From Minisyncoccota bacterium (GTDB lineage Bacteria > Patescibacteriota > Minisyncoccia > UBA6257 > 2-01-FULL-56-20), in assembly GCA_031291905.1 (NCBI GenBank), contig JARLIC010000137.1:51762-115761 (forward strand): 64,000 nt of DNA, written 5' to 3'. The notes below the pieces were generated by a model. It was given only the letters and a program-made list of their open reading frames with translations, was not told the origin of the DNA and did not search any database. Of this stretch, positions 19,020-60,072 are shown one piece after another. The translations under genes and the position numbers were made by a program. Numbering within the stretch: the first letter of the stretch is position 1; each line of letters begins with the position of its first letter.

Positions 19020-20669
19020 ATGGCTTGGGATTCAGCGTACTATTCGTCGGTCAACGAAGATCTCTTGCGATTCATCCCGCCGGATAGTAACCGCGTGCTT
19101 GAGGTGGGATGCGGAACCGGGGCGTTGGCCTCGCGGTTCAAGCGGATCAATCCGAAGTGCGTGTACTGGGGAGTGGAGGCTGACCAAGATGCGGGCGAAG
19201 CAGCTCACAATAATCCTGATCTCGATATCATGTTTTCAGAAACAATCGAGCACTTCCTAGGTCGATATCCCACGGAGTGCGAGAATCCCGATTGCGTCGT
19301 ATTCGGCGACTGCCTCGAACACCTTGTCGATCCACACGCCGTTCTCAAGAAATGCGTTGAATGGCTTAAGCCCAACGGCTCCGTCGTCGCCTGCGTTCCC
19401 AATGTTCAGCATTGGAGCGTGATTCAAACACTGATCCAGGGCCAATGGCCTCGAATGGGATCAGGATTGTTTGATGCGACGCATCTCAGTTGGTTCACCA
19501 AGCAAAGCCTGATTGAGATGTTCGAGGCGGCGGGGCTAACTATCGCGAAGATCGTCCCTCGCAATATCGCGCCAGGCGGCGAGCGTCTCATCGACGCCGT
19601 GAAGGAGTTTGGGCTTACCGAGGACGTCGGACGGTTTAGGGAGGGATGCCAGGCGTATCAATGGCTGATCCACGCCGTCAAGGGCGACGTCCCAAGCCGT
19701 AAAGTTCTCATCCGTGGCTTCACCGCCGAAGGATGCTGCGCCCGACCGCGTCTCACGGAGCCGGGCGGAATGATCAATACGATTCCCGGCTTCCGCTACT
19801 CCGAGGTCACGACACAGGTCGAGCCGGGGGAATCCGTGGTCGTTGTACGTCAGCGATTCAACATCACCGAAGCCGCCATCCGCGAACACCTGAAGCACGG
19901 GCAGTTGATTATCGGCGAATGGGACGACGACCCGTGGTACGAAGGGTTCAACGGCAAGCTCAAGACGCCATCCGTCGAATGGGCTCTCAAGGCTTGCCAC
20001 GCGATCCAGGTCAGCACCGAAGCCATCGCCGAACTCGTGCGACCGATCAACCCGAACGTCGCAGTGTTCCCGAATCAGATCGCAGCCGTGGGACCAGAAC
20101 GAGAGTACGTCGAGTCCGACGTAATCCGGGTCTATTTGGGAGGCCAGAGGAATAAAGGCGACTGGGACAAAGTGATCCCCTTCGTCAACGGCATGTCCGC
20201 CGCGAGCCCGGATGTTTTTCACTTCGTCGTCGTGCACGATAGGGATCTCTACCAGGCCCTTGAAACGCATAGGAAGACATTTTACGCCTTCCAGCCTTAC
20301 GAAAAGTATCGGGCCATACTGAGGACGTGCGATGTGACGATTGCTTCTCTAGCCAACACGCGGTTCAATCGGTGCAAGAGCGATATAACCGTAATCGAAT
20401 GCGCGGTGGAAGGCGTGGCCGTGATTCCGTGCAATCCAGAGTCCAGCATGTACACTGAGCTAAGGTCTTGGAAATACAACAAGAAACCAAGCGAGTTCGC
20501 TGAATCCCTTCGCAGCCAGGGACGAAGAGATCGCAGTTGGTCCATCAGCAACCGCATGCTCTGCGACCACTACAAGAAGCGAGCCGCATGGTACGACGGC
20601 TTGCTCGACGACAAGGCTGAATTGGATCGCCAGTTGTTCGAGCGGCTGCCGGAACTTCGTCCTACTTGA
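19020..20669 (+). CDS. class I SAM-dependent methyltransferase fused to GT-B-like glycosyltransferase domain
   Basis: MTase motif I VLEVGCGTGALA and post-I, II and III motifs are present. The C-terminal half has an ..ECAVEGVAVI.. GT-B-like region. GC is lower than in neighbours and the strand is opposite. Confidence 0.65.
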   Translation: MAWDSAYYSSVNEDLLRFIPPDSNRVLEVGCGTGALASRFKRINPKCVYWGVEADQDAGEAAHNNPDLDIMFSETIEHFLGRYPTECENPDCVVFGDCLEHLVDPHAVLKKCVEWLKPNGSVVACVPNVQHWSVIQTLIQGQWPRMGSGLFDATHLSWFTKQSLIEMFEAAGLTIAKIVPRNIAPGGERLIDAVKEFGLTEDVGRFREGCQAYQWLIHAVKGDVPSRKVLIRGFTAEGCCARPRLTEPGGMINTIPGFRYSEVTTQVEPGESVVVVRQRFNITEAAIREHLKHGQLIIGEWDDDPWYEGFNGKLKTPSVEWALKACHAIQVSTEAIAELVRPINPNVAVFPNQIAAVGPEREYVESDVIRVYLGGQRNKGDWDKVIPFVNGMSAASPDVFHFVVVHDRDLYQALETHRKTFYAFQPYEKYRAILRTCDVTIASLANTRFNRCKSDITVIECAVEGVAVIPCNPESSMYTELRSWKYNKKPSEFAESLRSQGRRDRSWSISNRMLCDHYKKRAAWYDGLLDDKAELDRQLFERLPELRPT

Positions 20670-23190: not shown

Positions 23191-24690
23191 TTAGGAGCCG
23201 AGCGAAAGCTGGACGAAGGGGGACGTCTTGTAGATCACGCCCGAGGGGGACGTCGACTGACGCGGCCCCATCCACAAGGACTTGCCGTCGTGGCGCTGCT
23301 TCCAGCGATACGCGATCTGGTCGGTGTCGAAGAGGAACTGTTCGCTGATCGCGACTTCGATGCCCGAGCGGTTCGCCACGCCGTACTGCGTGGGGTCGAT
23401 GAGCATGATGTCGCCGGTGCCCGAGACCTCAAGCTTTTCGGTCGTGAAGCGGATCGGCAGGCCGAGCAGGGTGCCCGCAGCCTGATACCGCATGCCGGCC
23501 GACTTGGTCCCGGCGATACTGGAAAGCATCGCGGCCTGGGTGATCTGTGAGTTGGGCTGGAACGCAAGGGTGGTGCCGTCGCGGACGTTAAGAAGTTGAC
23601 TGTAGGTCGCCTGGTGGGCGATGAACATCGCGTTCTTAAGACATGACATATCGAACAAGGCCAACATCGCCTGGAGGTCGGCGAGCTGGATCTTGTTCTG
23701 CAACAGGCGGGTCGCCGTGAGCAACGCCGGGCTCTGGCGGATTCCGGTCGGCTTGCCGGCTCCGTCGCCGTTCAGGAACACGAAGTCCGTCTTGTACGCC
23801 ATCGCCTTCAAAAAGAGGCTCTGAAGGACGGTGGCAGCCGAGATGTAGTTGTCGGCGACGAGGTCGCGGGAGATCTGCGTGTAAGCAGTCTGGTCGACGA
23901 TTTTGTACGTGATCTCGCGAAGCTTCGCGTCGGAAGCCTGGCGTTGGGTCGACTCGCCCTTGTAGAAGACCTGGATGCCGGCGGTCGCCGACGTCTGGCC
24001 GATGCCGGGGGCGAAGTACTGGTCCAGGGCGGGCCAGTGGACTTCGTTGGTCGCCCCGACCGGGATGTTGAAGGCGTACGGCTCGATCAGCGACTCTTCC
24101 ATCGCGATCTCGTTGTAGCCTCCGAGAATCTCCGGCTTCACGAAGTAGCCATAGGCGGAGCCGCCGGAAAGCGATTCACTGCCGGCGCGAGCGACGGCGG
24201 GCGACGCGGTCGACATGGAGCCGTCCCATGTCCGCTCCAGCTTGAAGTGCTCGACGAGCCGCTGGTCGGCGTGGTCGCGTTCGCCCTGAGACGCCGACGG
24301 GCGGGTTCGATAGAGCAGCCCGAGGATTTCGCCAAGGCCGCGACCGATCGCCTTGCCGTCCACGCCGCGATCGGCGGGGGATTCGGTGTGCTCGATCGTC
24401 CCGTTGAACGGAACGCCGTCGTCATCGAACTCCATGCCCTTGGACGGAGGGCCTTTACTGGGCTTATTGCCGCCGCTCTGGAGCGAACGCTTGAGGTCTT
24501 CAAGCTCCTTCGTGATCCCGGCGGTGGCGTCACTGAGTTGGCTGCGGACCATCGCGCTGACGTGGGCCTGAGCGTCGGATTCCTCGGCGAATCCGTACTC
24601 GATGTACCCTCGTGCGACCTTCTCGTCCGCGATATCGATCACATCGCCGGCCTTGTGCTCGTCGATGTTCTTCTTGAGCTTCACAAACAT
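23191..24690 (-). CDS. HK97-fold capsid protein paralog with N-terminal coiled-coil (delta-like) segment
   Basis: DLVADNYISAATVLQSLFLKAMAYKTDFVFLNGDGAGKPTGI matches the HK97 major-capsid signature. Start MFVKLKK at 24690. Confidence 0.7.
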   Translation of the reverse strand: MFVKLKKNIDEHKAGDVIDIADEKVARGYIEYGFAEESDAQAHVSAMVRSQLSDATAGITKELEDLKRSLQSGGNKPSKGPPSKGMEFDDDGVPFNGTIEHTESPADRGVDGKAIGRGLGEILGLLYRTRPSASQGERDHADQRLVEHFKLERTWDGSMSTASPAVARAGSESLSGGSAYGYFVKPEILGGYNEIAMEESLIEPYAFNIPVGATNEVHWPALDQYFAPGIGQTSATAGIQVFYKGESTQRQASDAKLREITYKIVDQTAYTQISRDLVADNYISAATVLQSLFLKAMAYKTDFVFLNGDGAGKPTGIRQSPALLTATRLLQNKIQLADLQAMLALFDMSCLKNAMFIAHQATYSQLLNVRDGTTLAFQPNSQITQAAMLSSIAGTKSAGMRYQAAGTLLGLPIRFTTEKLEVSGTGDIMLIDPTQYGVANRSGIEVAISEQFLFDTDQIAYRWKQRHDGKSLWMGPRQSTSPSGVIYKTSPFVQLSLGS

Positions 24691-24843
24691 GGGGTTCTCC
24701 CGATGTTGTCGTGGGTGTTGACAACGCTCGGCGCGGCGAATCTCCAGTCCGCCGGGGAGTCCGCCGCATCTCGAAGACGGGTCGGGCCGGGAACCTGATT
24801 GCTCGTGCGCTGACACGAAACAAAAACGTGTATTAAGATGTCG

Positions 24844-28780: not shown

Positions 28781-29587
28781 TCAAGGAGCGACAATGAACT
28801 CTTCGCCGTCATCGCCAAGACGATACGTCAGGTGACAATGGCAATTTTGTCGGCACTGGCGATCGCCAATACTCCTGAGACTTCCGATCGGAACGAAGCC
28901 TCTCGCGGAGTCTTCCAGGCAGTCCCCGCAGTGTTCGGCTTCTCCAAGGACCAAGCGTTCCTGATCGAACACCATGTTCCTGGCGTACGTCGCTCGGGCG
29001 ATCTCTTGCGAGCAGCCCCAGGCGCAGGCACCGTAGGATTCGGCTCGGGCGATGAATTGATTAGCCGTGATCGGTGCGGGGAAGATGAAGACTTCCAGCG
29101 TCTTGTCCGGATTGAAGGGCTGGGGCCGAAGCATGTCGGCCTGGAAGCGATCGAGGTAGGCGTCTTGCGTTACGGCCTGGCGTTCGGCCTGCTGGAGTTC
29201 ATCACTGGTCAAGGCTCGCGGGCCGAGCAAGCCCATCGCACCGGCGACGATCGATTCGCGGACGAAGCCTTTTATCCGTTTGAAGAACCGGCCCGCTTGT
29301 TCACGTAGAGACCGCCCAACTTGCTCATCTTCGGCTGGGCCGAGAAGACTCCGGCCTTCGTTCCAGTCGAGCTGGCTCCTTGCGAACTGCTGGGCTTCAT
29401 GCTTAATCCACGCTTTGGAAAAAGCACGAATGGCTTCGAGAAGGCGAAGACGCTCATGCCCATCGAGTTGCCCCTTGTTGTAGCGTGCGGTCCAGCCGAG
29501 CTTTTTGAGGACGTGTGCGAGGATCGCTTCGGCCGAAGCCGGCTTGTTCGTCAGCCGCTTGCTTCCGAGGGAAGGTCCACGGACCAC
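28781..29587 (-). CDS. Mu F-like head morphogenesis protein
   Basis: Located directly after the portal gene. C-terminal H...CRQNCHCHL resembles the Mu F domain His/Cys motif. Confidence 0.55.
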   Translation of the reverse strand: MVRGPSLGSKRLTNKPASAEAILAHVLKKLGWTARYNKGQLDGHERLRLLEAIRAFSKAWIKHEAQQFARSQLDWNEGRSLLGPAEDEQVGRSLREQAGRFFKRIKGFVRESIVAGAMGLLGPRALTSDELQQAERQAVTQDAYLDRFQADMLRPQPFNPDKTLEVFIFPAPITANQFIARAESYGACAWGCSQEIARATYARNMVFDQERLVLGEAEHCGDCLEDSARGFVPIGSLRSIGDRQCRQNCHCHLTYRLGDDGEEFIVAP

Positions 29588-31209
29588 GGCAGGTGATCGA
29601 AAGGGTCGCGATCCTCACCCTCCGCTAATCCTTCGACTCCATGAAGCTCCGCATCCTCTTGATCGAGGCCGCCATAAGCACCGCGAAGGCCGTCAGTCCC
29701 GCCATGCTCAAGACTTCGATTGCGGCTTGCATTGGGCTTCTTCTTCTTGTCGTCGCCGCCCTTGGCTTTCGGCTTCTTCTTCACGTCCTTGTTGTTGACG
29801 GCCGGGTTCCCGCCGCCTTCGGCCATTCCGATCGCACCGGCGGTGGCCATCTTGATTGTAGCTTCATTCATCTTAACAATCATCGACAGCGGCGACATGG
29901 TGTTCGGAAGAATCGGCTCGTCCCCCCACGGCACCGGAGGGAGGCCGGTTTCGGCGTTCCTCTGGTTGATCGTGATGCTTCCGTTCCTCAGATCCATGTC
30001 GAATATCTTGGTTTCTTGCTCGCGATCGACCTTGAGCGGGTTGTCGAAAGCGAAGAACAGCCGCCGGTCCCATTGCTGGATCACCCGCGTCAACTTGCTT
30101 GCGATCGACATGCACCGGGGGCTGATCGCCTGCTCGGCGTGCATCTCCTTGGCGGCCTGGAGGTTCGCCAGGTTCGTGTCGGTGGAGAAGAACTCTATCG
30201 GCGTGCCCATCGCGGCGCACATCGCCTGCCAGTCGTACTCGGCGATCTTCAGGCCCGAGAGGTCGGTCGGCGCATAGGTCGTCGGCTGGAAGTTCCACAT
30301 CCCGGTCGTGACCAGGATGCCGCCCTGGCGAGAGCGGGCGTGCTTCATGTTCAGTTCTTGCTCGAACTTCAGCCGCTCGGCGTCGCCGGGCATCGCGTTC
30401 GCGTCGGCGGGCGATGCGATCAGGTTGGGACGAGGCCCTTGCGCCAGGAGTTGCTCCTGGACCGACACGAACTTGTCTTCGAGCTTGGCGTACTCGTAAG
30501 CGGCGTAGAGCGGCGGGTACGACGCTCCGTAAGGGTCTTTCAGGCTCACGCCGTGACCGAAGTAGACGATCTCGTCGGGCTCCAGTCGACTGGCGAAATA
30601 CTGGTAGTGCGACGGAATCGGGGTTCCGGCTGCGCGGACCGGGAGGACGTACTGGCTGAACAGCGGCCAGAATTCCGTGTACGGCCTGCCTTCCGGCCCC
30701 TTGGGGGCGAAGTAAGCACGGCCGATGATGTCGCTGTAGAGCGAGATCATTTTGAGGATGTAGACGAGATCGAACATCCCGTACGGATCGGGATTGTTGA
30801 GCGTGTGGAGAAACGGATGCTCGCGAATCTCTCGAATATTCGCGACGTTCGTTCCATTGCTGGGGACGTACCCCGCGTTCCGCATGTGGCAGAACTGCCG
30901 AAGCGAAACCTCTCGCGGGTCGGAGATGTCCTTCGGCTTCTTGCCGTTCGTCGAGTCCATGTACAACTTGAGCGGAACGGAACTGACGGCGTTCGCGTTG
31001 ATGACGGCACAACTGTAGGCGATCGACTTGAAGTGCTCGATCAACTCGACCGGCGAAGGGGCCGGCTTGGACCGCCACGCGTCCGTGGTCGACGGGCCGC
31101 CGATCCACCCGGTGCCGAGAGAGAATCCCCCAGGGGGTCCAGAGGAGCCTTTACGCTCGACACTGAACGCCGATGCGTCGGCCTGGAGTCTTTCGAGGAA
31201 GCTTGCCAA
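29551..31209 (-). CDS. portal protein
   Basis: 552 aa, located downstream of terminase. Acidic/basic C-terminal tail. Central HPFLHTLNNPDPYGMFDLVYILK segment. Confidence 0.7.
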   Translation of the reverse strand: MASFLERLQADASAFSVERKGSSGPPGGFSLGTGWIGGPSTTDAWRSKPAPSPVELIEHFKSIAYSCAVINANAVSSVPLKLYMDSTNGKKPKDISDPREVSLRQFCHMRNAGYVPSNGTNVANIREIREHPFLHTLNNPDPYGMFDLVYILKMISLYSDIIGRAYFAPKGPEGRPYTEFWPLFSQYVLPVRAAGTPIPSHYQYFASRLEPDEIVYFGHGVSLKDPYGASYPPLYAAYEYAKLEDKFVSVQEQLLAQGPRPNLIASPADANAMPGDAERLKFEQELNMKHARSRQGGILVTTGMWNFQPTTYAPTDLSGLKIAEYDWQAMCAAMGTPIEFFSTDTNLANLQAAKEMHAEQAISPRCMSIASKLTRVIQQWDRRLFFAFDNPLKVDREQETKIFDMDLRNGSITINQRNAETGLPPVPWGDEPILPNTMSPLSMIVKMNEATIKMATAGAIGMAEGGGNPAVNNKDVKKKPKAKGGDDKKKKPNASRNRSLEHGGTDGLRGAYGGLDQEDAELHGVEGLAEGEDRDPFDHLPWSVDLPSEASG

Positions 31210-32886: not shown

Positions 32887-33318
32887 TTAGGCGCCGACTT
32901 CGGTCCAGCGTTCGTCGTCCCAATCGCTCGTCATCGCCTCGTAGGTTCCGTCGTGCTGGGCCGGCGGCGGCGGCTGGATATTGTGCTTGGCCCCGTAGAT
33001 CGCCATCGCACGAACGACGAGCGGCGGCGGATTGCCGGTGGTCGCGGTCAGCGTGTCCCACCACTGGTGCGGGCCGTCTCCCTCGATCGCGACCTGGCGG
33101 CAGAAGTCGCACCGGAGGGCGGCCAGATCGTAGCGTCGCAGGAGTCGGGTTGATCGCTGTGTCGACCGGGTGCAGCGAGGGCAGGGGGGGCCGTCGTGCT
33201 TGATCACGACCTGGACTTCATCGTCCGGCACGTCGGCTTCGACGGCTTCAATAATGGCGTCTTCGGCATCGCGGGGCTTCGGGGGACGGCCGCGACGTTT
33301 GGTCTCGATCGTGCTCAT
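32887..33318 (-). CDS. basic zinc-ribbon protein (KRRGRPPKP; CPRC...CDFC)
   Basis: Overlaps the TerL stop by 4 nt. Confidence 0.45.
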   Translation of the reverse strand: MSTIETKRRGRPPKPRDAEDAIIEAVEADVPDDEVQVVIKHDGPPCPRCTRSTQRSTRLLRRYDLAALRCDFCRQVAIEGDGPHQWWDTLTATTGNPPPLVVRAMAIYGAKHNIQPPPPAQHDGTYEAMTSDWDDERWTEVGA

Positions 33319-35864
33319 GCTACCTCTATGTCCGTGTCATGCCACGAGTCGGGCCACCAGCGGGGGTCTTGCCAATCTTGCTGGGCGGCTCGATCTTTTT
33401 CGATCTTCTCCAGCCACGCCCGCTCCAGCCGTTCGCGTTCCATGCGTTCGCGTTCTTCGGGGGGGATGGCGGCTGGGCCACGCTTCTGGACTTCAAGAGA
33501 GGCGTAGGCGAGCACGTCGACTGTGTCGTCGTGGGCACCGTTAGGAAAGGTCATCAACTCGGTTTCGAGGTTGTCGAGTTCCGGGTGATGCTTGGGAAAC
33601 CAAATCTGACCGGCTTCCATGCGTATCTGGGCGTCTACGCTTCGGGCTATTTTATCGACGTTCCCGGTCTTGAGCGACTGGATCGTCAAGCCTTGCTTTC
33701 GAGCCGCTTTAATGACTAGGTTTTGCGCTGCAACATCTTCGATTCCACAATACGACGCCTTGTGCTTGTCCATCATCGCACGAATAGACGGGACGAGCTT
33801 ATCGCCGGTCATCTGTTCGCGATGCATGTCAAGAAGAATCAGGTCGCTGTCCGGCGTCACAGCCCACGCGCCGATGCATGTGTAGTCCGCACTGGTTCTT
33901 GTAGAAAATGCGAGGTCTACCGCCAGGAAAATTCGGCAGTGATCGAGGCTGAATGATCGTGTTTCAAGCCTGATGTAGTTTTCGTGCCGATCATAGTATT
34001 TGAAATCTGATCGCCGAAATAATCCACCACCCTCGGGGGAGGGGCGTTGCTGATACACAGAATTAAAAAGATGTTTTTGGGTTGCTTTGACACGAAGCAG
34101 GTATTCTTCGTTGAAGTGCTCGGGCCAGAGGGCTTCGCCTCGCTTGCGTCCCATCGGATCGTTATCTTCGGCCAAAGCCGGAAGATTATAGACGACCCAT
34201 TCCTCGCCCGTCTCTTTCGCTCGATCCAGGATCTTGCCGACCATGTCGGCTTCATGCCACCTCTGCATGACGACGACGATCGACCCACCGGGCTCAAGCC
34301 GCGTGTACGCGGTTCCGACGTACCAGTTCCAAGCCTTCTCGCGAAGCGTCTCGCTGAACGCATCCTCTTGCTTCTGGACGTCGTCAAGCACAAGTAGGTG
34401 CGCTCCCTTCCCGAGCAACGCGCCCCCCATGCCGACGGTCTGCATTCCGCCGCTGTGGCCCTTGAGCATCCAGCGATCGGCGGCCTTGCTATCCTGGCGG
34501 ATCTTGACTCCGAAGTATTTCTCGCCGTCCTCTTCGATCAGGTCGCGTACCTTGCGTCCCCACTCGGAAGCGAACTCAGCCTCATACGACGCCAGGATCA
34601 CTTTCTTGTCCGGGTTCCTCCCCAGATACCACGCCGGGAAGTACATCGACGTCATTGTGCTATTGCACGTCGGAATCATCGAGCGGCCACACAAAAACAT
34701 GTGGCTCGGTGAGTCGACTTCGATGCAAACAGTGTCGCCGGTTCCGACGTACGTGGCGCCGATGTATCGGTTCGGCTGCTTAACGCCGTCGCGACATCGC
34801 GGCGACTTCCGAGGCGACTTGCAGGCCCCTGCTTTATAGAACATGACGCGGAATTTGGGTCCGCAATCTTTTCCATAAAGCGTAGCTCTTCCAAGTATCA
34901 GGCTCGCCTTGGTTCCGAGTGAACGAACGAGTTCAAGGCAGCCTTCAGCCAATGCTAGGTCTGTCGAGCAAAACTCGACCTGGCCATCCGGAGCGACATG
35001 GCCATCCGTGTCGCAAAGCCCACGAAGCAACTCAAACCTTTGGCTCTCGCTCGCTCGCAGGTATTGGTTCGGGACATGCTTGTTCTTCAGCAGGCCGAGT
35101 TCGCGAAGCTTTCCGCCAAGGCCCATGACCCCAAATACGTTTTCGACCGACCGATCTCTCGTCTCGTAGCCGAGCCGCGAAAGTTCTTCCTTGAACCACT
35201 CAGTATCCAGGCCGTTGCACGTGATGCCGCAGTTCTCGGAGCAGCCGTTTCCAAGCCAAACACCGAGGACGTACGGGTCGATCGGCAAGTCGGCATCGGG
35301 AAGCTGAAGTGCCCCCTGCTTGCGGACCATAAGCCTCTTGTTTCGAGGCTTCGAGAGATAGGCGGTGTCTTTGACGTGGAATATATCGCGAGTCTTCGCC
35401 TTGCTGACGACCCACTCGTGATTTTGGTCGGCGAAGATTTCATCGCCGTCGTCGGTTGTTACTCGGTAGATCGGGCGGTTCTTCCAGACGGGAGACTTTG
35501 CCACAACGTTACAGGGCTGACCGTCTTCATTAAAGACCTGATCGCCCGGCTTCAGTTCCCCTATCGTCGTCCAGCCGGAAGGCGTCGGGATCGGGGTGCT
35601 CAGGGCTAAGGCTTTCCCGTGCCTCGGTGGCACCGTCACAATTAATCGTTTGATCCGGCCCTCCGCCACATCCATCATCTTCTGCGTCAAGAAGAGAAGA
35701 TGTTTCGCCGGCTTCCACTGAAATTCGCTCGAAAGATGTGCATAGTGCGCGGGGCTCAGGTTCGCTATATGCTTCTCTAGGCTGAATCGCTCCTGCGAGT
35801 TGAGTGAGGCCGCCAAGGAGCGTAAGGACTCGATCTGTTGCGGCGTCTCCATTGAGGTGATCAA
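33315..35864 (-). CDS. terminase large subunit interrupted by an intein
   Basis: N-terminal ATPase region runs through the Walker A up to VTVPPRHGK. It resumes as STMTSMYFPAWYLG.. after ~317 inserted residues. C-terminal RNase-H-like nuclease (FLAVDLAFS...DSDLILLD). Confidence 0.85.
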   Translation of the reverse strand: MITSMETPQQIESLRSLAASLNSQERFSLEKHIANLSPAHYAHLSSEFQWKPAKHLLFLTQKMMDVAEGRIKRLIVTVPPRHGKALALSTPIPTPSGWTTIGELKPGDQVFNEDGQPCNVVAKSPVWKNRPIYRVTTDDGDEIFADQNHEWVVSKAKTRDIFHVKDTAYLSKPRNKRLMVRKQGALQLPDADLPIDPYVLGVWLGNGCSENCGITCNGLDTEWFKEELSRLGYETRDRSVENVFGVMGLGGKLRELGLLKNKHVPNQYLRASESQRFELLRGLCDTDGHVAPDGQVEFCSTDLALAEGCLELVRSLGTKASLILGRATLYGKDCGPKFRVMFYKAGACKSPRKSPRCRDGVKQPNRYIGATYVGTGDTVCIEVDSPSHMFLCGRSMIPTCNSTMTSMYFPAWYLGRNPDKKVILASYEAEFASEWGRKVRDLIEEDGEKYFGVKIRQDSKAADRWMLKGHSGGMQTVGMGGALLGKGAHLLVLDDVQKQEDAFSETLREKAWNWYVGTAYTRLEPGGSIVVVMQRWHEADMVGKILDRAKETGEEWVVYNLPALAEDNDPMGRKRGEALWPEHFNEEYLLRVKATQKHLFNSVYQQRPSPEGGGLFRRSDFKYYDRHENYIRLETRSFSLDHCRIFLAVDLAFSTRTSADYTCIGAWAVTPDSDLILLDMHREQMTGDKLVPSIRAMMDKHKASYCGIEDVAAQNLVIKAARKQGLTIQSLKTGNVDKIARSVDAQIRMEAGQIWFPKHHPELDNLETELMTFPNGAHDDTVDVLAYASLEVQKRGPAAIPPEERERMERERLERAWLEKIEKDRAAQQDWQDPRWWPDSWHDTDIEVA
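34662..35612 (-). mobile_element. intein with LAGLIDADG homing endonuclease inserted in the terminase P-loop
   Basis: Hint N-blocks ALALSTPIPTPSGWTTIGELKPGDQVFNEDG and ..IFADQNHEWVV. Two LAGLIDADG motifs: YVLGVWLGNGCS and LLRGLCDTDGHV. C-terminal block ..VCIEVDSPSHMFLCGRSMIPTCN followed by S. Confidence 0.7.
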
Positions 35865-36345
35865 TCTCGATCCTCTGCACGAACATCCCGTGGTACTTGG
35901 CGAGTTTGTCCATCGCCTCGGCCGCGTCGTGGAACTTGACCTCGATCGCGCCGCTCGGGTGGATCTTGAGATCCTTGATCAGGTTGCCCTTCTTGAGCTT
36001 CTTGACCTTCTTCAGGTCCAGCACAGGCTTCTCGATCGGCTCGCCGCTGGAGTCGAGCTTGACGTTGCCTCTGGCGTCCACGTCTTCAACGAACTCGACG
36101 AACTCCATCACGTCCAGTGAGGCGATCGTCGACAGTCGTGCCAGAACCTCGGCGACCGGCATCGCCCCGGATTCTTCGAGCTTCTGTTCGAGGTATCCGC
36201 TGATCACCCTGCTTTTGAGTAGTTGAAAGGCGGCCGACTCAGGATTCGCGTACCCCGCCATCTTCGCGGCTTTGACCGCGTTGTCTTTGGCGTCGCCAAG
36301 GTAGTAGTGGACGAACAGACGTTGGCGGTGGTTGAGCGTCGACAT
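35530..36345 (-). CDS. terminase small subunit
   Basis: N-terminus LNHRQRLFVHYYLGDAKDNAVKAAKMAGYANPESAAFQLLK fits the terminase small-subunit pattern. The 3' 335 nt overlap the TerL ORF in another frame. Confidence 0.65.
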   Translation of the reverse strand: MSTLNHRQRLFVHYYLGDAKDNAVKAAKMAGYANPESAAFQLLKSRVISGYLEQKLEESGAMPVAEVLARLSTIASLDVMEFVEFVEDVDARGNVKLDSSGEPIEKPVLDLKKVKKLKKGNLIKDLKIHPSGAIEVKFHDAAEAMDKLAKYHGMFVQRIEIDHLNGDAATDRVLTLLGGLTQLAGAIQPREAYSEPEPRALCTSFERISVEAGETSSLLDAEDDGCGGGPDQTINCDGATEARESLSPEHPDPDAFRLDDDRGTEAGRSGL

Positions 36346-48512: not shown

Positions 48513-48796
48513 GCCGCCTCCTGGTGAATCAAATGCTCCGCGTCACACACCTTGAGGATGCTCAACGCGAGCTGGACCGCCTGATCCCTGGGTAGCTTCA
48601 TGAACCCCCACAGGCCAGGGCTTTTGAACGACACGTCGATCAAATCGCCTTCGCCGTCCTGGACCGCGATTTTGGCTACGGACTGGGCCTCAACGCGAAC
48701 GGTGTCGATCGGCCTTCCGGAGAGCGACCGATTGACCGTCAGCATCCGCATGGCCGTCTCTCGAAGCGAAACACTCATCTTCGCTCGCATTCTCAT
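48509..48796 (-). CDS. hypothetical protein (first gene of the minus-strand block)
   Basis: ORF. Confidence 0.35.
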   Translation of the reverse strand: MRMRAKMSVSLRETAMRMLTVNRSLSGRPIDTVRVEAQSVAKIAVQDGEGDLIDVSFKSPGLWGFMKLPRDQAVQLALSILKVCDAEHLIHQEAA

Positions 48797-48930
48797 GGGC
48801 TCCTCGATTGTCTTGCTTTCAAGCGTCCATCCTCAGCGAGCCCAATCCTACCGGGCGAACATTTGCATGTCAATGGAGAAAGCAAGAAATTTCACTTGCC
48901 ACTAAACAGGGCTTCATGAAGTGAAATCCG

Positions 48931-49304
48931 AGCCGTCGAGACCTTTCGACGGGGAGGGTTTCGCAAGACTCCTCCGCGTTCGGCTGGTCCCGGCCCCATC
49001 GCGAATAGTTGGAGCCCACACGCAGAAATGGCCCAGGATGCCCCAGGAGCGATCCGTGATGTCAAACTGATGGAATCTACCAACCTGGTCCCGGCGATCG
49101 CGTGGTGAGCCCAGGAGAGGCCTCCGAACGCAGGGGGTTGCGAGCCGGGCGACGGCGTCCCCCGCGAACCGATTTTCGGCCTCGCGTGATATACAAGAAA
49201 AACCGTCGGCCTCGTGCGAATTCGGAATTAGCTTGCGCAGTACAAGAACAAGCGTCGCTCAATCTGGATTGCGAGCCGTTCGCCGTCGAAAGGTCTCGAC
49301 GGCT
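48931..49304. promoter_or_regulatory. 22-bp perfect inverted repeat pair (48931-48952 / 49283-49304) bracketing ~330 bp of the divergent control region
   Basis: agccgtcgagacctttcgacgg versus its exact reverse complement. Confidence 0.5.
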
Positions 49305-49574
49305 CACGTCTCCCCTTAGAATTTGCATTCAGGTAAGAAGATTAGATATGGCTAAACCAAATACTAAAACCTAATCCTTCGGAGTCAAAAAGACAATACT
49401 TCGCACGGCCAGCGTGCCCGAACCTTCTTTATATAGGGAATCCATCAAAGATCGTGAATGCAAGCGGCCGATTGTCTTGCTTTGCTAAAAATCTTGCAAT
49501 CTGTCTTGACGTTCGGAATAAACGGCGGTAGGATCTGGCTCGGGCGACAAGAACGTTGGAATGGCAAGGAGAAC

Positions 49575-50741
49575 ATGCGAATGAGTGAGCTGATCGTGGA
49601 GGTGTGCGAAGTACTGGAAGTCCTGCCGCATGGGAATGCGGATCGGCTTGAGATCGTCACGGTGAAAAATTGGCCCGTGGTTGTCCAGAAGGGCCTTCTC
49701 AAGCAAGGCGATCCCGTCGTTTTCTTTCCGCCGGACAGCGTCTTGACCGAAGAACTGGCCGATCGGCTCGGCATCCGGAAGTACCTCGCCCCGGTCAAGA
49801 CCGGCGAATCCGTCACCGGCTATCGGGTCCGGGCCACTCGGCTTCGCGGTGTCGCCAGTTTCGGGACGATCGACCATGAGATCCCGGAAGGCTTCGCGGT
49901 CGGGGCCGACGTGGCGGAGCACTACGGCGTAACGAAGTGGGAGCCGCCGGCACGGGGTGGCGACAATTGGGCTGGCGGAGGGCTCAAGGGCAGCCAGTAT
50001 CGCGTCACCAATGCGGCGTTCCACCGATACAAGAGCATCAGCAATATTCGGCACAATCGCAATGCGTTCAAGGACGGCGAGATGGTCGTCCTCACGGAGA
50101 AGGTCCACGGCTCCAATATGAGGTCCGGCCTCATCAAGACGCCGTACGACCCCGGAACCGGCTTTATTGGTTTCTTGCGGCGGATTTACTGCCGGGTGTT
50201 CGGTTCGCCGGAGCCGACCTACGAGTTGATGGCCGGGAGCCACAACCTTCCTCGCGACGTCTATAGCGAAGACGGCAGCCTCACAGAGTACGCCCTCCCG
50301 ATCGGCGAACCGAACGTCGTCGGCCTGCTCAAGTACCTGAGCAACGGCGAGCACGACGTCATCCTGTTCAGCGAACTGTTCGGCAGCGGCGTCCAAGATA
50401 TGACGTATGGCCACAAGGACGGCAGTCGTGGCTTCCTGGCCTTCGACATCACGATCGACGGACGATATCTGGACGCGGTTGAGAAGTACGACCTGCTGTC
50501 CCGCTATCAGGTACCGACCGTCCCCGTGCTTTACACGGGACCCTTCTCATGGGATGTCGTCGAAGCCTATACCGATGGCCCGACCACGATCTGTGATCCC
50601 AAGGATGCCGGCCCGTTCAAGGGTCGCGAGGGCGTCGTCGTGACGTGCTTGACGGAGCCTCGGGACTATCCAGGCCGGAAGATTTACAAGTCGATTTCGG
50701 CGGATTATTTGGCCCGGAAGAATGCCACGGATTCCCACTGA
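49575..50741 (+). CDS. ATP-dependent RNA ligase (Rnl family) with N-terminal tRNA-binding-like OB domain
   Basis: N-terminus EVLEVLPHGNADRLEIV...GDPVVFFPPDSVL resembles the HPNADkL tRNA-binding domain. Ligase motif I LTEKVHGSN matches Rnl EKIHGTN. Later EGVVV and KIYK fit motifs IV and V. AAGGAGAAC upstream of the ATG. Confidence 0.65.
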   Translation: MRMSELIVEVCEVLEVLPHGNADRLEIVTVKNWPVVVQKGLLKQGDPVVFFPPDSVLTEELADRLGIRKYLAPVKTGESVTGYRVRATRLRGVASFGTIDHEIPEGFAVGADVAEHYGVTKWEPPARGGDNWAGGGLKGSQYRVTNAAFHRYKSISNIRHNRNAFKDGEMVVLTEKVHGSNMRSGLIKTPYDPGTGFIGFLRRIYCRVFGSPEPTYELMAGSHNLPRDVYSEDGSLTEYALPIGEPNVVGLLKYLSNGEHDVILFSELFGSGVQDMTYGHKDGSRGFLAFDITIDGRYLDAVEKYDLLSRYQVPTVPVLYTGPFSWDVVEAYTDGPTTICDPKDAGPFKGREGVVVTCLTEPRDYPGRKIYKSISADYLARKNATDSH

Positions 50742-51142: not shown

Positions 51143-51750
51143 GCGAACAAGCCAAAAGCAGCGACGCGCGATCCCCGCACACTGACGCCCTCGATACGCT
51201 CGGAAGCATCATTACAGAGAACGAAAAGCGAGACGCGATCCACCTGGCGGTTGAAAATGTCGTGGCGGCCCACGTTCTTCGGCCTGGAGAGCATGTCGGT
51301 TTCTGGGCTGTTGGGATAGTCGGGAGCAGTTCTAAGCCAGTTGGGATCGTCGATCCTTTCCTGAAGACGGCCGTCAATGAAGGCGAGCACTTCTGGCTGA
51401 TCGTCTACCCTCGCCAGATCACGTCGCTTCGTCACGTCTGGACGCACCCGGCGTTTCCTGACGCATCGGAGCTGAAGACGCAGGAGGTCGCGATTCAACG
51501 CGAAGTCGATCCCGTTGCGGAGTCACGGCGGTGGATCGATAACTTCGCCGCGTCAATCGATCAAACGACCAATCGGCTGATGGAGGCGGCTGCCACTTGG
51601 ATCAATGACCGCGAGTTCACGTACGACAACAGCCGAGCCTATAGTGACTTTCAGCACAAGTTCCCGGAGTTCTGGGGCCACTATGAAGTCGTGACTGGGG
51701 CGAAGGTTGAAGAGGACGATCGCGAGAGGTTCTTTACGTGTGGCTGCTAA
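51139..51750 (+). CDS. hypothetical protein
   Basis: GTGA-coupled start. Confidence 0.4.
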   Translation: MSEQAKSSDARSPHTDALDTLGSIITENEKRDAIHLAVENVVAAHVLRPGEHVGFWAVGIVGSSSKPVGIVDPFLKTAVNEGEHFWLIVYPRQITSLRHVWTHPAFPDASELKTQEVAIQREVDPVAESRRWIDNFAASIDQTTNRLMEAAATWINDREFTYDNSRAYSDFQHKFPEFWGHYEVVTGAKVEEDDRERFFTCGC

Positions 51751-51763
51751 GGGAGGAAGCGAA

Positions 51764-52207
51764 ATGAATCGTCGTATCTTTGGAAAGAAATCAACAGGTT
51801 GGCTTGCGGCGTTCGGGGCTGTGCTTGGCGTGAAGACGGCACAGGCCCATGAGCCTTTCGGCCTGAAGGCGACGGGCCAACTAGAGACGATGGGCTACTG
51901 GAAAACCAAGCCGGATAATCCTGCCAGCACCGATCGGTATGGAATTTACATCAAGTTGGATAGTCCAGTTATCCAAGATGACGGAACCAAGTTGGATGAT
52001 TTCATCCTCCATATTTCAGAGTGCCGCAGGGCGTGGCATCTAAAATACAGAGTGACGAGTGCGGATGGAGTCATCTCGAAACAGTCAATCCATTGCGATC
52101 AACGCAATGCTATTCACGTCAATCGGAAGGGCTTGGATCAAATCCAGATTGGGACGGCTGCAATTTTCTTGCCGCCGAAGTACGAGGAGACGTCTTCATG
52201 TCCATGA
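51764..52207 (+). CDS. Tat-signal secreted protein, paralog 1
   Basis: MNRRIFGKKSTGWLAAFGAVLGVKTAQA signal. GGGAGGAAG upstream. Confidence 0.55.
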   Translation: MNRRIFGKKSTGWLAAFGAVLGVKTAQAHEPFGLKATGQLETMGYWKTKPDNPASTDRYGIYIKLDSPVIQDDGTKLDDFILHISECRRAWHLKYRVTSADGVISKQSIHCDQRNAIHVNRKGLDQIQIGTAAIFLPPKYEETSSCP

Positions 52208-52632
52208 ATCTGAATCGCCGCGCCTTCAGCAAGAAATCAGCCGGAGCATTCGGAGCCGTCCTCGCAGCCCTGGGCGTGAAGACGGCGACGGCGGAGAAGC
52301 TGTCGACGCCGATGGCTGGTGGTCGGCTGGAGACGGTGGGCTATTGGACCCACGAAACCTGCAAGCCCGATGTCGATCCATTGCCGGCCGTGCATCTCCA
52401 TGGTCAGGATTGGCCCGCTGGGTCCAAACGGCTCCACGTGCAATCCAGGGTGGCCAAGCTAAATCACAGCTATACGGCCGCATGGAAAGGCAAGCCACAA
52501 ATGAAGTGCACCAATTGGGCCGTCGTTCGCGTGTACCTGAACCGCGATGGAACAGAGACGTACGAGTTTGTCCCGGCCGATGGTCAGTCTGAATTGCTTC
52601 GCAAGAATGAGCCGATCGGCACCTTTTCCTGA
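52198..52632 (+). CDS. Tat-signal secreted protein, paralog 2
   Basis: MSMNLNRRAFSKKSAGAFGAVLAALGVKTATA signal. Shares the RLETVGYW motif with paralog 1. Confidence 0.55.
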   Translation: MSMNLNRRAFSKKSAGAFGAVLAALGVKTATAEKLSTPMAGGRLETVGYWTHETCKPDVDPLPAVHLHGQDWPAGSKRLHVQSRVAKLNHSYTAAWKGKPQMKCTNWAVVRVYLNRDGTETYEFVPADGQSELLRKNEPIGTFS

Positions 52633-52642
52633 AAGGACCACC

Positions 52643-52981
52643 ATGAACCGGCGTGACTTCGTTGGCAAGGCGGCTGGGGCTTCGGCCCTGGCTGCTACTG
52701 GCGGAATGGCAAAGGCTGACGTAGTCGAGCCGCCGGCAGAGGTTTGCAAACTTCGGCACACGGCCGAAGATGGGCCGCCGTGCGTGAGGATCAAGGTGCT
52801 CGGGGTCACGAAAATCTATGACATGAGCGCCACGAGCTGGAATAGCGATCACCCCGGCTCCAAATGGGAATGCGAGTACGAGTTGACTCGGATCGACGGC
52901 AGCACGGTAATCAGAACCGCGAACACGGTTCAACTGGGCAGCGACAAGCAGCCCAAATCCTTTGGATTCGACCTCTCTTGA
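52643..52981 (+). CDS. Tat-signal secreted protein 3
   Basis: MNRRDFVGKAAGASALAATGGMAKA signal. Confidence 0.5.
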   Translation: MNRRDFVGKAAGASALAATGGMAKADVVEPPAEVCKLRHTAEDGPPCVRIKVLGVTKIYDMSATSWNSDHPGSKWECEYELTRIDGSTVIRTANTVQLGSDKQPKSFGFDLS

Positions 52982-53001
52982 CAATCAGGAGTCCCCAGAG
53001 A

Positions 53002-53316
53002 ATGCATGATCGCACGGAGCACCTCGACTTGCTGGCCGACCACGTTGTTGAGATCATAGGCGGGCTTCAGCGTGAAGCCGTCCGGGAAGCCGTCAGCGAC
53101 GCGACCGCGATCAACATTTGCAAGATCAAACCTTCGGCTATTCATCCTAATGGCCAGCCGATGTTTGATGCCAAAACCTTGCAATACGCTGACGGCCTCA
53201 TGGAAGACGTGTTTAGCCACATCGCCAGCAAGTGGTCCGAGTTCCGCGAGATTCAGCGGCGGCTCTGTTCGGCGAGTGCGATGCATTACGATGAAAATGG
53301 GGACTTCGATCTATGA
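53002..53316 (+). CDS. hypothetical protein
   Basis: CAGGAG upstream. Confidence 0.35.
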   Translation: MHDRTEHLDLLADHVVEIIGGLQREAVREAVSDATAINICKIKPSAIHPNGQPMFDAKTLQYADGLMEDVFSHIASKWSEFREIQRRLCSASAMHYDENGDFDL

Positions 53317-53570
53317 GCAAGGCAAAACCAGAAACCAGGAGTTCAGAACCAATCAAGGAGATCAAGAGCGAAATGCAAGTCCGTAGAGAAGTTTACGAAG
53401 CGGCGAAGCGAGACATCATCCAGGTCGTCGTCGAACTGGCCACGGAGCACGAGTTGTTCCCTATCGAGATCGTCGCGATCCTTGGCGAGATCGGTGCGAA
53501 GTTCTCGGTGGAAGAACTCAACCGCCAGTACGAAGAGTTCTACGAACCGGCCGACGCGGACGCGAGGTGA
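53313..53570 (+). CDS. hypothetical protein
   Basis: ORF. Confidence 0.35.
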   Translation: MSKAKPETRSSEPIKEIKSEMQVRREVYEAAKRDIIQVVVELATEHELFPIEIVAILGEIGAKFSVEELNRQYEEFYEPADADAR

Positions 53571-53595
53571 CAACGATGCAACCGCCCGCTCGACG

Positions 53596-54225
53596 ATGAG
53601 TGGGCGGCCTTTTATCAGGAGTGCCATATTGAGGTATGTGAGCATCGATATCGAGACGACGGGATTGAATCCGGAGACGGATCAGATCCTTGAGTTCGGA
53701 GCCGTGATCGACGACACGCTGAGGCCAGATGTTCCGGTTGAGGAACTGCCGACGTTCCGCAAGGTAATCCGGAGCGACCGGCTATCCGGGACGCCAATGG
53801 CAATCGCCATCAACGCGAGCCTGATCAACTTCATTGCTTCCGTGGAAAAGCCGGAAGAGAACGAATTGTTCTGCCTTCCTAAAGATCTTGGCTTCGAGTT
53901 CTTCGTTTGGCTTCGAGGTCATGGATTCAAGATCAAGAACAACTCGAATGCGGCCTTTGTGCCAGCAGGAAAGAACTACGCCGGATTCGATTCCAGGTTC
54001 CTAAATAAGATCCCCCACTGGAATACGTATCTGACTCCATGCCATCGCACGCTCGACCCCGCCATCCTCTACTTCGATCCCCTGAAGGACGAGAAGCCGC
54101 CGAGCCTTTACGAATGCCTGGAGCGGGCTGGGTTCGACGCTACGGTGAAGCACACGGCCGTCGACGACGCACGTGATGTGGTGCGACTTCTTAGGCATAA
54201 GTTTGCGGAGGTGTCTGGTGGCTGA
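53596..54225 (+). CDS. DEDD-family 3'-5' exonuclease
   Basis: Exo I motif YVSIDIETTGL and Exo III motif HTAVDDARDVVRLL. Confidence 0.7.
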   Translation: MSGRPFIRSAILRYVSIDIETTGLNPETDQILEFGAVIDDTLRPDVPVEELPTFRKVIRSDRLSGTPMAIAINASLINFIASVEKPEENELFCLPKDLGFEFFVWLRGHGFKIKNNSNAAFVPAGKNYAGFDSRFLNKIPHWNTYLTPCHRTLDPAILYFDPLKDEKPPSLYECLERAGFDATVKHTAVDDARDVVRLLRHKFAEVSGG

Positions 54226-58881: not shown

Positions 58882-59496
58882 ATGGCCGCAAAGACCACCA
58901 GGATCAAGAGGCTGACCAAGAAGAAGAAGGATGAGGCTGCGAAGAACGTCCCGTTGGCCAAGCACATCGCGAAGAAAATGGGATGGCGAGATCTTCCGAT
59001 GGAGGATCAGATCCAAGAGGCGTCCGTCGGCCTGTGCAAAGCGGTGAACGGATTCGATCCATCCAGGGGAACGAAGCTGAGCACCATGATCGGCCGATGT
59101 GCGATGAACGAGATCTTGTCTGCGAGGCGGAAGTACGGTTTGATCCGGATACCAGACTACCTCCAAGAGAAAGCGAACGCCGAACACGGCCTCCAGAAGC
59201 ACGTCAAACAGGCCGGAAAGCGGCTCAGTATCGACGGGATATCGGAGGACTCGGAATTTCATCCAAGGTGCCCCGAAGACGACGACTCCGAGTTCGGCTG
59301 GAAGGCGATGCGGGCGGTTCGATGGGCCGTCCAGAAGCTTCCGCCGATCGAGCGGGACGTGATTCGCGGGCTGATGTTCCGCCAGGAAACAGCCCGCGAA
59401 CTGGGCAAGAAGCACGGCGTCCACGTCTCGGTGGTGCGTCACCTGAAAGACACAGCCTTGGCGAAGTTGCGAGCGAGTTTGGTTAAGCACGTGTAA
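58882..59496 (+). CDS. sigma-70 family sigma factor
   Basis: Region 2: PMEDQIQEASVGLCKAVNGFDPSRGTKLSTMIGRCAMNEI. Region 4: IERDVIRGLMFRQETARELG...VSVVRHLKDTALAKLR. Confidence 0.75.
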   Translation: MAAKTTRIKRLTKKKKDEAAKNVPLAKHIAKKMGWRDLPMEDQIQEASVGLCKAVNGFDPSRGTKLSTMIGRCAMNEILSARRKYGLIRIPDYLQEKANAEHGLQKHVKQAGKRLSIDGISEDSEFHPRCPEDDDSEFGWKAMRAVRWAVQKLPPIERDVIRGLMFRQETARELGKKHGVHVSVVRHLKDTALAKLRASLVKHV

Positions 59497-59511: not shown

Positions 59512-60072
59512 ATGGCCAAAAAGAAGCCGACCGCGAAAGGATTGATTCCCTTTGACCTGCCATTGAATGAGGAACAAAAAGAACTGGCGGCGTCGTGCGA
59601 GAGGATGGTGGTGAACATAGCGAAGAAGTCGGCGAATCGGAACAACAACTTCGACGACCTGATCGACGCCGGGCAGATGGGCCTCATACGAGCCGCCCAG
59701 ACATACGACGAGGCGAAAGGTGCGTTTTCGACGCACGCGTATCGGTGGATTTTAGCGAAAGTGCTGAGAGCAAGACATGAGCTAAACAAGAACAACGCCA
59801 GAAAGGATTACGCATTCGACGTGCGGAATCTTCCGTCTCGCCCGGCCGAAGACACCTGGTTTGACCCAGATGTCGTATTGCAAGCCTTCGACTCCCTTCC
59901 CAGGCAACTTCAGGACGTTGTTCGACTCAGGGTCTGGGATGACGACGCCAAGAAGCTGGATAAGGTCGCCAGGCGGCTGGGCTGCGTAAAACAAACGGTC
60001 TTAACCCGCCAAGCCAAGGCGTTCGGAATCCTCCGCGACACGCTCTGGCGATACGCACGGGAGGCTTCATGA
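59512..60072 (+). CDS. sigma-70 family sigma factor (second, adjacent)
   Basis: Region 2: FDDLIDAGQMGLIRAAQTYDEAKGAFSTHAYRWI. Region 4: LQDVVRLRVWDDDAKKLDKVARRLGCVKQTVLTRQAKAFGILR. Confidence 0.75.
   Translation: MAKKKPTAKGLIPFDLPLNEEQKELAASCERMVVNIAKKSANRNNNFDDLIDAGQMGLIRAAQTYDEAKGAFSTHAYRWILAKVLRARHELNKNNARKDYAFDVRNLPSRPAEDTWFDPDVVLQAFDSLPRQLQDVVRLRVWDDDAKKLDKVARRLGCVKQTVLTRQAKAFGILRDTLWRYAREAS

Follow-up and report, generated by a model that had tools for sequence, protein, structure and literature searches.

Three adjacent genes encode proteins with twin-arginine-type signals

Why does a tailed phage carry, side by side, three small genes whose products all begin like substrates of the twin-arginine translocation (Tat) pathway, and by which route and to what end would these products leave the cytoplasm? 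The question is raised by genes A, B and C, located at positions 51764-52981 of the 64,000-nt stretch of contig JARLIC010000137.1 analysed here (the window, whose coordinates are used throughout). As described in the initial annotation, three consecutive open reading frames (ORFs) lie at these positions, and each carries an RR-type signal peptide with an RRxF motif and an AxA site. All three are genuine genes, and the phage that carries them is a tailed one. As judged by these signals, their products are likely to be exported, and the reading that we favour, by slightly better than even odds, is that they are exported, envelope-acting accessory proteins of a small family found in a clade of phages.

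All three genes are on the + strand and tightly spaced, with gaps or overlaps of -10 to +20 nt. Gene A (51764-52207) encodes 147 aa, with an RR-type signal ahead of a hydrophilic mature part of 119 aa. Gene B (52198-52632; 144 aa) overlaps the end of A; an alternative ATG at 52204 would give a 142-aa product and an ATGA overlap with the stop codon of A. Gene C (52643-52981; 112 aa) is the conserved member of the cassette. The gene upstream of A ends with a stop codon at 51748-51750, and a Shine-Dalgarno-like site, AGGGAGGA, occupies 51750-51757, 6 nt 5' of the A start codon. The corresponding sites of B and C are GAGGAG and AAAGGA, respectively.

The predicted signal peptide of A (51764-51847) reads MNRRIFGKKSTGWLAAFGAVLGVKTAQA, followed by HE, with a Gly next to the RRxF motif; its cleavage site was placed by the -3/-1 rule only. 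That of B (52198-52293) reads MSMNLNRRAFSKKSAGAFGAVLAALGVKTATA, followed by EK, and the Tat-type signal of C (52643-52717) reads MNRRDFVGKAAGASALAATGGMAKA, followed by DV. Each of the three combines a short basic amino-terminal region (n-region) of the form M..NRRxF, a 14-residue uncharged core rich in Gly and Ala, and an AxA site. The ORFs in all six frames of the window were searched with a strict pattern, in which M is followed by up to 5 residues, RRxF, 12 or more uncharged residues and AxA; there were three matches, which were A, B and C and were adjacent. No match was obtained in 400 shuffled windows (200 mononucleotide and 200 triplet shuffles).

Selection was assessed with the C orthologue of the related phage contig L020. 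Differences were mostly synonymous in the + frame, with a ratio of nonsynonymous to synonymous substitutions (dN/dS) of 0.17 (dS 1.39, dN 0.23). The ratio was 0.17 in the signal and 0.15 in the mature part, indicating that both are under similar purifying selection. Together with the absence of matches in the shuffled windows, this rules out that A, B and C are chance ORFs. An antisense ORF of 252 aa (52226-52984) was also considered and rejected as a true gene, as the + frame is the one that agrees with the pattern of selection and with the orthologues. An independent pipeline made identical calls for the three genes on other assemblies of the same phage.

The phage contig (119,133 bp) also has a public annotation, in which the products MDR3582628-31 are all named hypothetical. 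There, A is 155 aa long (8 residues longer than here), B is 142 aa long, and C (among MDR3582628-30) starts at an internal Met, giving a 91-aa product. The signal of C is thus hidden because a wrong start was chosen: C orthologues lack a Met at this internal position and keep the MNRR start. The public contig is binned in a 'Candidatus Pacebacteria/Paceibacterota' metagenome-assembled genome, and nothing seen here supports that bin.

Export signals and the choice between Tat and Sec

Related cassettes were found in six phage contigs: the window, L020, a 1.7-kb JGI contig, L021, L022 and L023. Together they encode 13 RR-signal proteins, on which the following comparisons are based.

The initial annotation had called the three signals classic twin-arginine signals. 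This description suits C well. C passes the curated Tat-signal model TIGR01409 of NCBIfam (19.8 bits, for a cutoff of 16.7), and its RRDFV segment fits the default TatP pattern, RR.[FGAVML][LITMVF], a pattern that accounts for 97% of the sequences on which TatP was trained. Hydrophobicity of the core (h-region) was estimated as the maximum 10-residue Kyte-Doolittle mean. On this scale, which is rough (reference values of 1.48-2.22 for nine Tat signals and 1.92-2.83 for seven Sec signals), the core of C is weakly hydrophobic and Tat-like, with a maximum of 1.27. Among the relatives, X3 of L021 (18.4 bits) and P0003 (16.8) also scored above the TIGR01409 cutoff; P0004 (15.5) and a 104-aa protein of L022 (13.7) remained below it and the others gave no match. 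The description does not extend to A and B, which fail both the curated model and the pattern and have cores of Sec-like hydrophobicity, as detailed below.

Four features of the whole family nevertheless favour Tat, as far as signal sequences can tell. First, RRxF is kept in 13/13 proteins: the twin positions are Arg in 26/26 cases, and NRR is present in A, B, C and all 10 relatives. At the other basic positions of the n-region, by contrast, Lys is preferred (16 K versus 3 R). Second, the carboxy-terminal region of the signal (c-region) contains a Lys in 9/13 proteins, and such a Lys is typical of Tat signals ('Sec-avoidance'). In the window, the c-regions are VKTAQA|H in A, VKTATA|E in B and MAKA|D in C, all with small residues at -3 and -1. 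Third, the cores are short, with 12-16 residues rich in Gly, Ser and Thr, and are therefore too short for a membrane anchor. Finally, the L021 protein X1 carries a C-family mature domain behind an A/B-type signal (MNRRIFGKKATGFLAAVGAMVGVKAKA, then DVV). This pairing implies that both types of signal deliver the same kind of cargo.

Several results weigh against our reading, starting with the signals of A and B. A (RRIFG) and B (RRAFS) fail the TatP pattern at its last position because Gly or Ser follows Phe where a hydrophobic residue is expected. Neither gives a TIGR01409 match. Their cores reach 2.34, above all nine Tat references and inside the Sec range of the same rough scale. In addition, most RR-motif signals of Bacillus subtilis are Sec-dependent (PMC1182353), so that sequence alone cannot fix the export route. 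Genome scans with the C family and DnaN gave no clue to the host, hence none to its type of envelope or to the presence of a Tat system.

The strongest alternative is accordingly that these signals, at least those of A and B, are ordinary Sec signals, in which the arginines merely supply a positively charged n-region and the protein is exported unfolded through SecYEG. The results on A and B and the B. subtilis precedent speak for it, as do the small size of the cargo and the lack of any indication of a cofactor. It does not, however, explain why RRxF should be invariant while the other basic positions favour Lys, nor the frequent Lys of the c-region. It also leaves aside the C-type signals recognized by the curated Tat model and the presence of an A/B-type signal on C-family cargo. 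We therefore regard it as rather unlikely for the family, while conceding that it deserves more credit than any other alternative. Use of Tat seems probable for C; for A and B, the signals leave the matter evenly balanced.

Hydrophilic cargo domains with few conserved features

The mature parts are 49-119 aa long and hydrophilic, with grand average of hydropathicity (GRAVY) values of -0.3 to -0.8, and contain neither a membrane segment nor a lipobox. In the window they begin with HEP (A), EKL (B) and DVV (C), with no lipobox Cys after the signal. The domains are apparently beta-rich. They contain one to three Cys each, and only the Cys of a W-x-C-x-Y motif is kept across the C family. Conserved features of this family are a DV(V/I) mature N-terminus, the motif W-x-C-x-Y-x(5)-D-G-[ST] and a C-terminal [FL]-D-[LI]-S.

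A and B had initially been described as having paralogous mature domains. A BLASTP comparison of the two gave 52% identity over 54 aa (E 1e-12). The similarity covers the signal and about 20 residues beyond it (including LETxGYW), and the claim is therefore only partly borne out; the remaining mature parts show no detectable similarity. In profile-profile comparisons of mature parts, C and A matched with an E value of 0.006, and other pairs were not significant. A hidden Markov model (HMM) of the C family was further used to rank 2,107 sequences, including 2,100 shuffled decoys. A, Y1 (L020), X2 (L021) and the 104-aa protein of L022 were found in the top 7, and B and its relative P0006 were not recovered from the same set. 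These rankings suggest that A, Y1, X2 and the L022 protein share a beta-hairpin module, W-x-x-x-[YF]...DG, with the C family.

The C-termini provide another common feature. In 11/13 proteins the last residue is Ser, preceded by Cys or a hydrophobic residue (FDLS, FDIS, GTFS, GTYS, NEIS, NCS), and this holds even across members without other detectable similarity. The Ser-ending C-terminus could act as a tail for recognition or form the final strand of a common fold. No mature part had a match in Pfam, PHROG, NCBIfam, PADLOC or PDB sequence profiles.

Just upstream of the L022 cassette, a 78-aa protein without a signal (L022 547-783) shows a comparable strand-turn-strand motif, CVRYKVVHLNGDVVEF, and could be a cytoplasmic protein related to the same module.

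A rare family restricted to one clade of phages

In a word-indexed search of 5.8 billion proteins, A had only identical copies and B a single relative, its orthologue P0006, with 60% identity. For C, the same search returned P0003 (71% identity) and P0004 (65%). The C orthologues are P0003, P0004, X1, P0007 and P0008. A HMMER scan of 1.84 billion representative proteins with the C profile gave four matches. Three of them are true clusters, with C itself as P0002 and the others as P0007 and P0008; a repetitive 1037-aa protein, the remaining match, was judged spurious. Scans of IMG/VR with A, the C family, the A/B family and distant C members all led to one contig, L021/L024, which carries three tandem members: X1, which is C-like, X2, and X3, whose motif is RRTFLAK.

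Neither the C family nor the 104-aa gene downstream of C had a match in the metagenome scans, and genome scans, run with the C family and DnaN, were empty as well. Among GenBank phages there was no DNA match and no protein match to A or C, and the best cultured-phage match to the window terminase was below 35% identity. We also examined 18 IMG/VR loci sharing the neighbouring phrog_11912 gene: the cassette was present in the closest locus only, and in 16 more distant loci no such RR-signal genes were found nearby. The number of RR-signal genes per contig ranges from one to three, and a C-like gene is present in all six. The family is thus very rare and restricted to one clade of related phages.

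A conserved C gene next to a mosaic A/B slot

The members of the cassette do not evolve alike. C diverges at the pace of core genes: identity with L020 is 71% for C and 68% for DnaN, and identity with L022 is 45% for C and 43% for the downstream 104-aa gene. In contrast, the upstream A/B slot has a rapid turnover and a mosaic make-up. A or B share only 31-36% identity with Y1, and the slot varies from one to three copies, both being tendencies of arms-race genes.

Two relatives illustrate this mosaicism. Y1 (L020 6210-6638) has an A/B-type signal, a B-type linker (EKLSNP) and an A-like distal part. X1 (L021 3848-4177), as described above, joins an A/B-type signal to a C-family domain. From the sequences of these two proteins, signal and cargo modules appear to be shuffled between members of the cassette.

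The cassette lies in a non-structural rightward block

The window is that of a phage, as the initial annotation had supposed, and more precisely of a tailed one. Profile matches identify the terminase large subunit (33315-35864) and small subunit (35530-36345), the portal (29551-31209) and the major head protein (23191-24816), all on the - strand. This strand also carries genes for tail, tape-measure-like and adaptor proteins, as well as for SSB, a DNA methyltransferase, a ParB-like protein and a sliding clamp.

The leftward and rightward gene blocks are separated by a divergent intergenic gap of about 950 bp (48513-49457). Sigma-70-like promoter matches are found on both strands at 48.8-49.5 kb (48873-, 49388-, 49506+), and the gap is likely the main control region. 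The rightward block begins with an RNA ligase gene (49458-50741, + strand; PF09414 5e-16, phrog_968 9e-40), followed by a 130-aa gene, the phrog_11912 gene, A, B, C, a 104-aa gene and an 85-aa gene (53313-53570). A strong terminator-like hairpin (53582-53607, + strand; 11 pairs, 8 of them G-C, with a T-rich tail), which comes from a consensus scan only, lies 3' of this last gene. It would close a first rightward transcription unit holding the cassette.

Beyond the hairpin are genes for an RNase T-type exonuclease, DUF5131, a MazG-like protein, two sigma-70-family proteins and ThyX. The two sigma-70-family genes (58882-59496 and 59512-60072, + strand; Sigma70_r2/r4) are adjacent, and their presence in the rightward block with the MazG-like and ThyX genes suggests phage-directed transcription switching. 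The neighbours of the cassette thus include the RNA ligase, the exonuclease and the sigma factors, and no structural or lysis gene. The cassette belongs to a non-structural rightward block that starts after a divergent gap and contains two sigma-factor genes. From this layout, it can reasonably be assigned to an early or middle region. The 64-kb window has no tRNA, no TatA-like motif and no signal-peptide gene besides A, B and C, and no endolysin or holin gene was recognized among its ORFs scanned.

The gene directly 3' of C (53002-53316, + strand; 104 aa) is conserved and has no signal peptide. Its homologues are found at L020 6980-7234, L021 4762-5232, L022 1463-1771 and L023 554-862, and it adjoins the C-like gene on the 3' side in all loci whose DNA could be read. 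In the JGI contig, which is not among these loci, the corresponding place is taken by a 93-aa gene. The protein has an LDLLAD motif near its N-terminus and an acidic C-terminal end, and gave no family match in Pfam, PHROG or PADLOC. It may be a partner of the cassette, such as a cytoplasmic chaperone, or no more than a syntenic core gene.

Three observations concern other parts of these phages. In L021, a 421-aa ORF (1549-2814) occupies the place of the window RNA ligase upstream of the cassette region; only about 19 residues of the two align, showing that the upstream gene differs between phages. The terminase ORF at 33315-35864 encodes 849 aa, of which residues 402-823 match the usual terminase profile and residues 49-301 match terminase, primase and DnaC-like P-loop profiles, indicating an extra N-terminal ATPase-like part. 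Finally, a + strand gene (19020-20669; 549 aa) with methyltransferase-like and glycosyltransferase-like parts lies inside the - strand structural block. It sits in a stretch with a G+C content of 0.57-0.58, compared to 0.63-0.66 nearby, and looks like an inserted accessory gene.

Proposed role of A, B and C and its alternatives

Taken together, the family would consist of hydrophilic, probably beta-rich proteins made with a short cleavable signal that carries an invariant RRxF. We propose the following sequence of events. A, B and C would be co-transcribed within the first rightward unit and translated with their RR-type signals after infection, at a time when structural genes are not yet required. 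The export machinery of the host would then carry them across the cytoplasmic membrane, C by the Tat translocase and A and B by Tat or possibly Sec. Signal peptidase would cut after AxA and free small soluble proteins into the periplasm or the cell envelope. There they could bind or block their targets in envelope conflicts, by excluding other phages, masking a receptor or neutralising an envelope-located host factor.

Such a role in envelope-level conflict is offered tentatively, by analogy, and we consider it possible but somewhat doubtful. A conserved member, a fast mosaic slot, a variable copy number, restriction to one clade and non-structural neighbours all fit conflict functions. Periplasmic anti-phage defences do exist, HXS being one example (PMC13128918). 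A more elaborate scheme is that A, B and C are diversifying Tat-dependent envelope effectors, in which a conserved C and a recombining A/B slot that swaps signal and cargo would be used early against rival phages or a periplasmic defence, possibly with the 104-aa protein as partner. We hold this scheme to be a speculative and rather improbable extension.

The cargo adds its own points to those raised against our reading by the signals. No sequence link to a known exclusion, antiholin or anti-defence protein was found in PHROG or PADLOC. Superinfection exclusion, receptor masking and cell-wall remodelling had been suggested as functions, and no sequence or predicted fold pointed to exclusion, receptor masking or wall remodelling in Pfam, PHROG, PADLOC and PDB comparisons. 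Structure prediction of the mature domains, which the initial annotation had called for, was carried out with AlphaFold, but the models were poor (pLDDT, the predicted local distance difference test, of 57.5 for C and 41.9 for B) and gave no significant fold match.

After the Sec alternative discussed above, the next to be weighed is that A, B and C regulate the timing of lysis from the periplasm, in the manner of the T4 antiholin RI, a small phage protein with a cleavable signal that binds the holin through the periplasmic domain of the latter. Their size and layout resemble those of RI, in which a small soluble domain in the periplasm follows a short signal (PMC8385771), and no other gene of the window bears a signal. 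PHROG and Pfam, however, gave no match to RI or to any lysis protein, and the ORFs scanned yielded no recognizable endolysin or holin, the cassette being surrounded by RNA ligase, exonuclease and DUF5131 genes. Three diverging copies would moreover be unexpected for an antiholin. We consider this alternative unlikely.

It could also be imagined that the signals themselves are active. Abundant Tat-signal proteins would saturate the translocase and block export of host Tat substrates such as the cell-wall amidases, thereby weakening the envelope, and the cargo would be of minor importance. The multiple tandem copies and the better conservation of signals than of cargo in the A/B slot would agree with this. 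Yet the mature domain of C is under clear purifying selection, as shown by its own dN/dS, and the conserved motifs W-x-C-x-Y...DG[ST] and C-terminal FDLS imply that the cargo matters. We know of no precedent for such a takeover of the Tat system, and find it very improbable. That the proteins are not exported soluble proteins at all, and either remain in the cytoplasm, with an RR motif that arose by chance, or are membrane proteins whose N-terminal anchor stays uncleaved, is equally hard to credit: the internal start of C in the public annotation would fit, but the orthologues keep the MNRR start and lack that Met, the uncharged stretch is limited to 12-16 residues followed by AxA, the signal region is under purifying selection and the pattern is absent from the 400 shuffles.

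Comparison with known export signals and phage envelope proteins

The exported accessory proteins that we propose can be compared first with Tat substrates. With the Tat consensus S/T-R-R-x-F-L-K, the family shares the twin Arg, the x-Phe and a Lys located 1-3 positions after Phe; with Tat signals in general, it shares the short Gly/Ala-rich h-region, the frequent Lys of the c-region and the AxA site. It differs by its minimal n-region (MNRR) and by a small phage-encoded cargo with no sign of a cofactor. A and B differ further by the Gly or Ser after Phe and by their more hydrophobic cores. Thus, C belongs to the Tat-signal class as defined by the curated model, whereas A and B miss two of its sequence criteria.

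Phages are known to send a few small proteins to the envelope to exclude rivals or to time lysis, and the examples studied use Sec or lipoprotein routes. Envelope proteins involved in exclusion or receptor masking include Llp of T5, Cor of phi80 and N15, Imm and Sp of T4, and Ltp of the Streptococcus phage TP-J34. Like them, A, B and C are small phage-encoded proteins, predicted to reach the envelope and to be no part of the virion, with fast evolution and differences from one related phage to another. Llp, Cor, Imm, Sp and Ltp, however, are lipoproteins or membrane proteins that follow the Sec and lipoprotein pathways, whereas A, B and C have no lipobox Cys at +1 and no hydrophobic segment in the mature part, and showed no sequence or fold similarity to these five. 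With T4 RI they have in common a small size, a cleavable signal peptide and a soluble periplasmic domain (PMC8385771); they differ by the lack of homology (PHROG), by the lack of recognized lysis genes nearby and by a signal of RR type instead of Sec type. A, B and C are therefore outside any described phage exclusion or antiholin family. In the literature searched, which was a full-text library only, no phage effector dependent on Tat has been described.

If export by Tat is true, phages also exploit the route for folded proteins, and A, B and C would represent the first described class of Tat-dependent phage effectors; they would also offer for study a compact, evolvable collection of modules that pair signal and cargo. 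The importance of the finding is tempered by the size of the family, with its six phage contigs and three true clusters in 1.84 billion representative proteins. The locus also holds a practical lesson, as the public annotation both hides the signal of C by a wrong start and files a phage under a candidate-phylum bacterial bin. Compared to these known systems, phage-encoded exported accessory proteins are familiar; what is new here is the association of an RR-type signal with an orphan, mosaic family of cargo domains.

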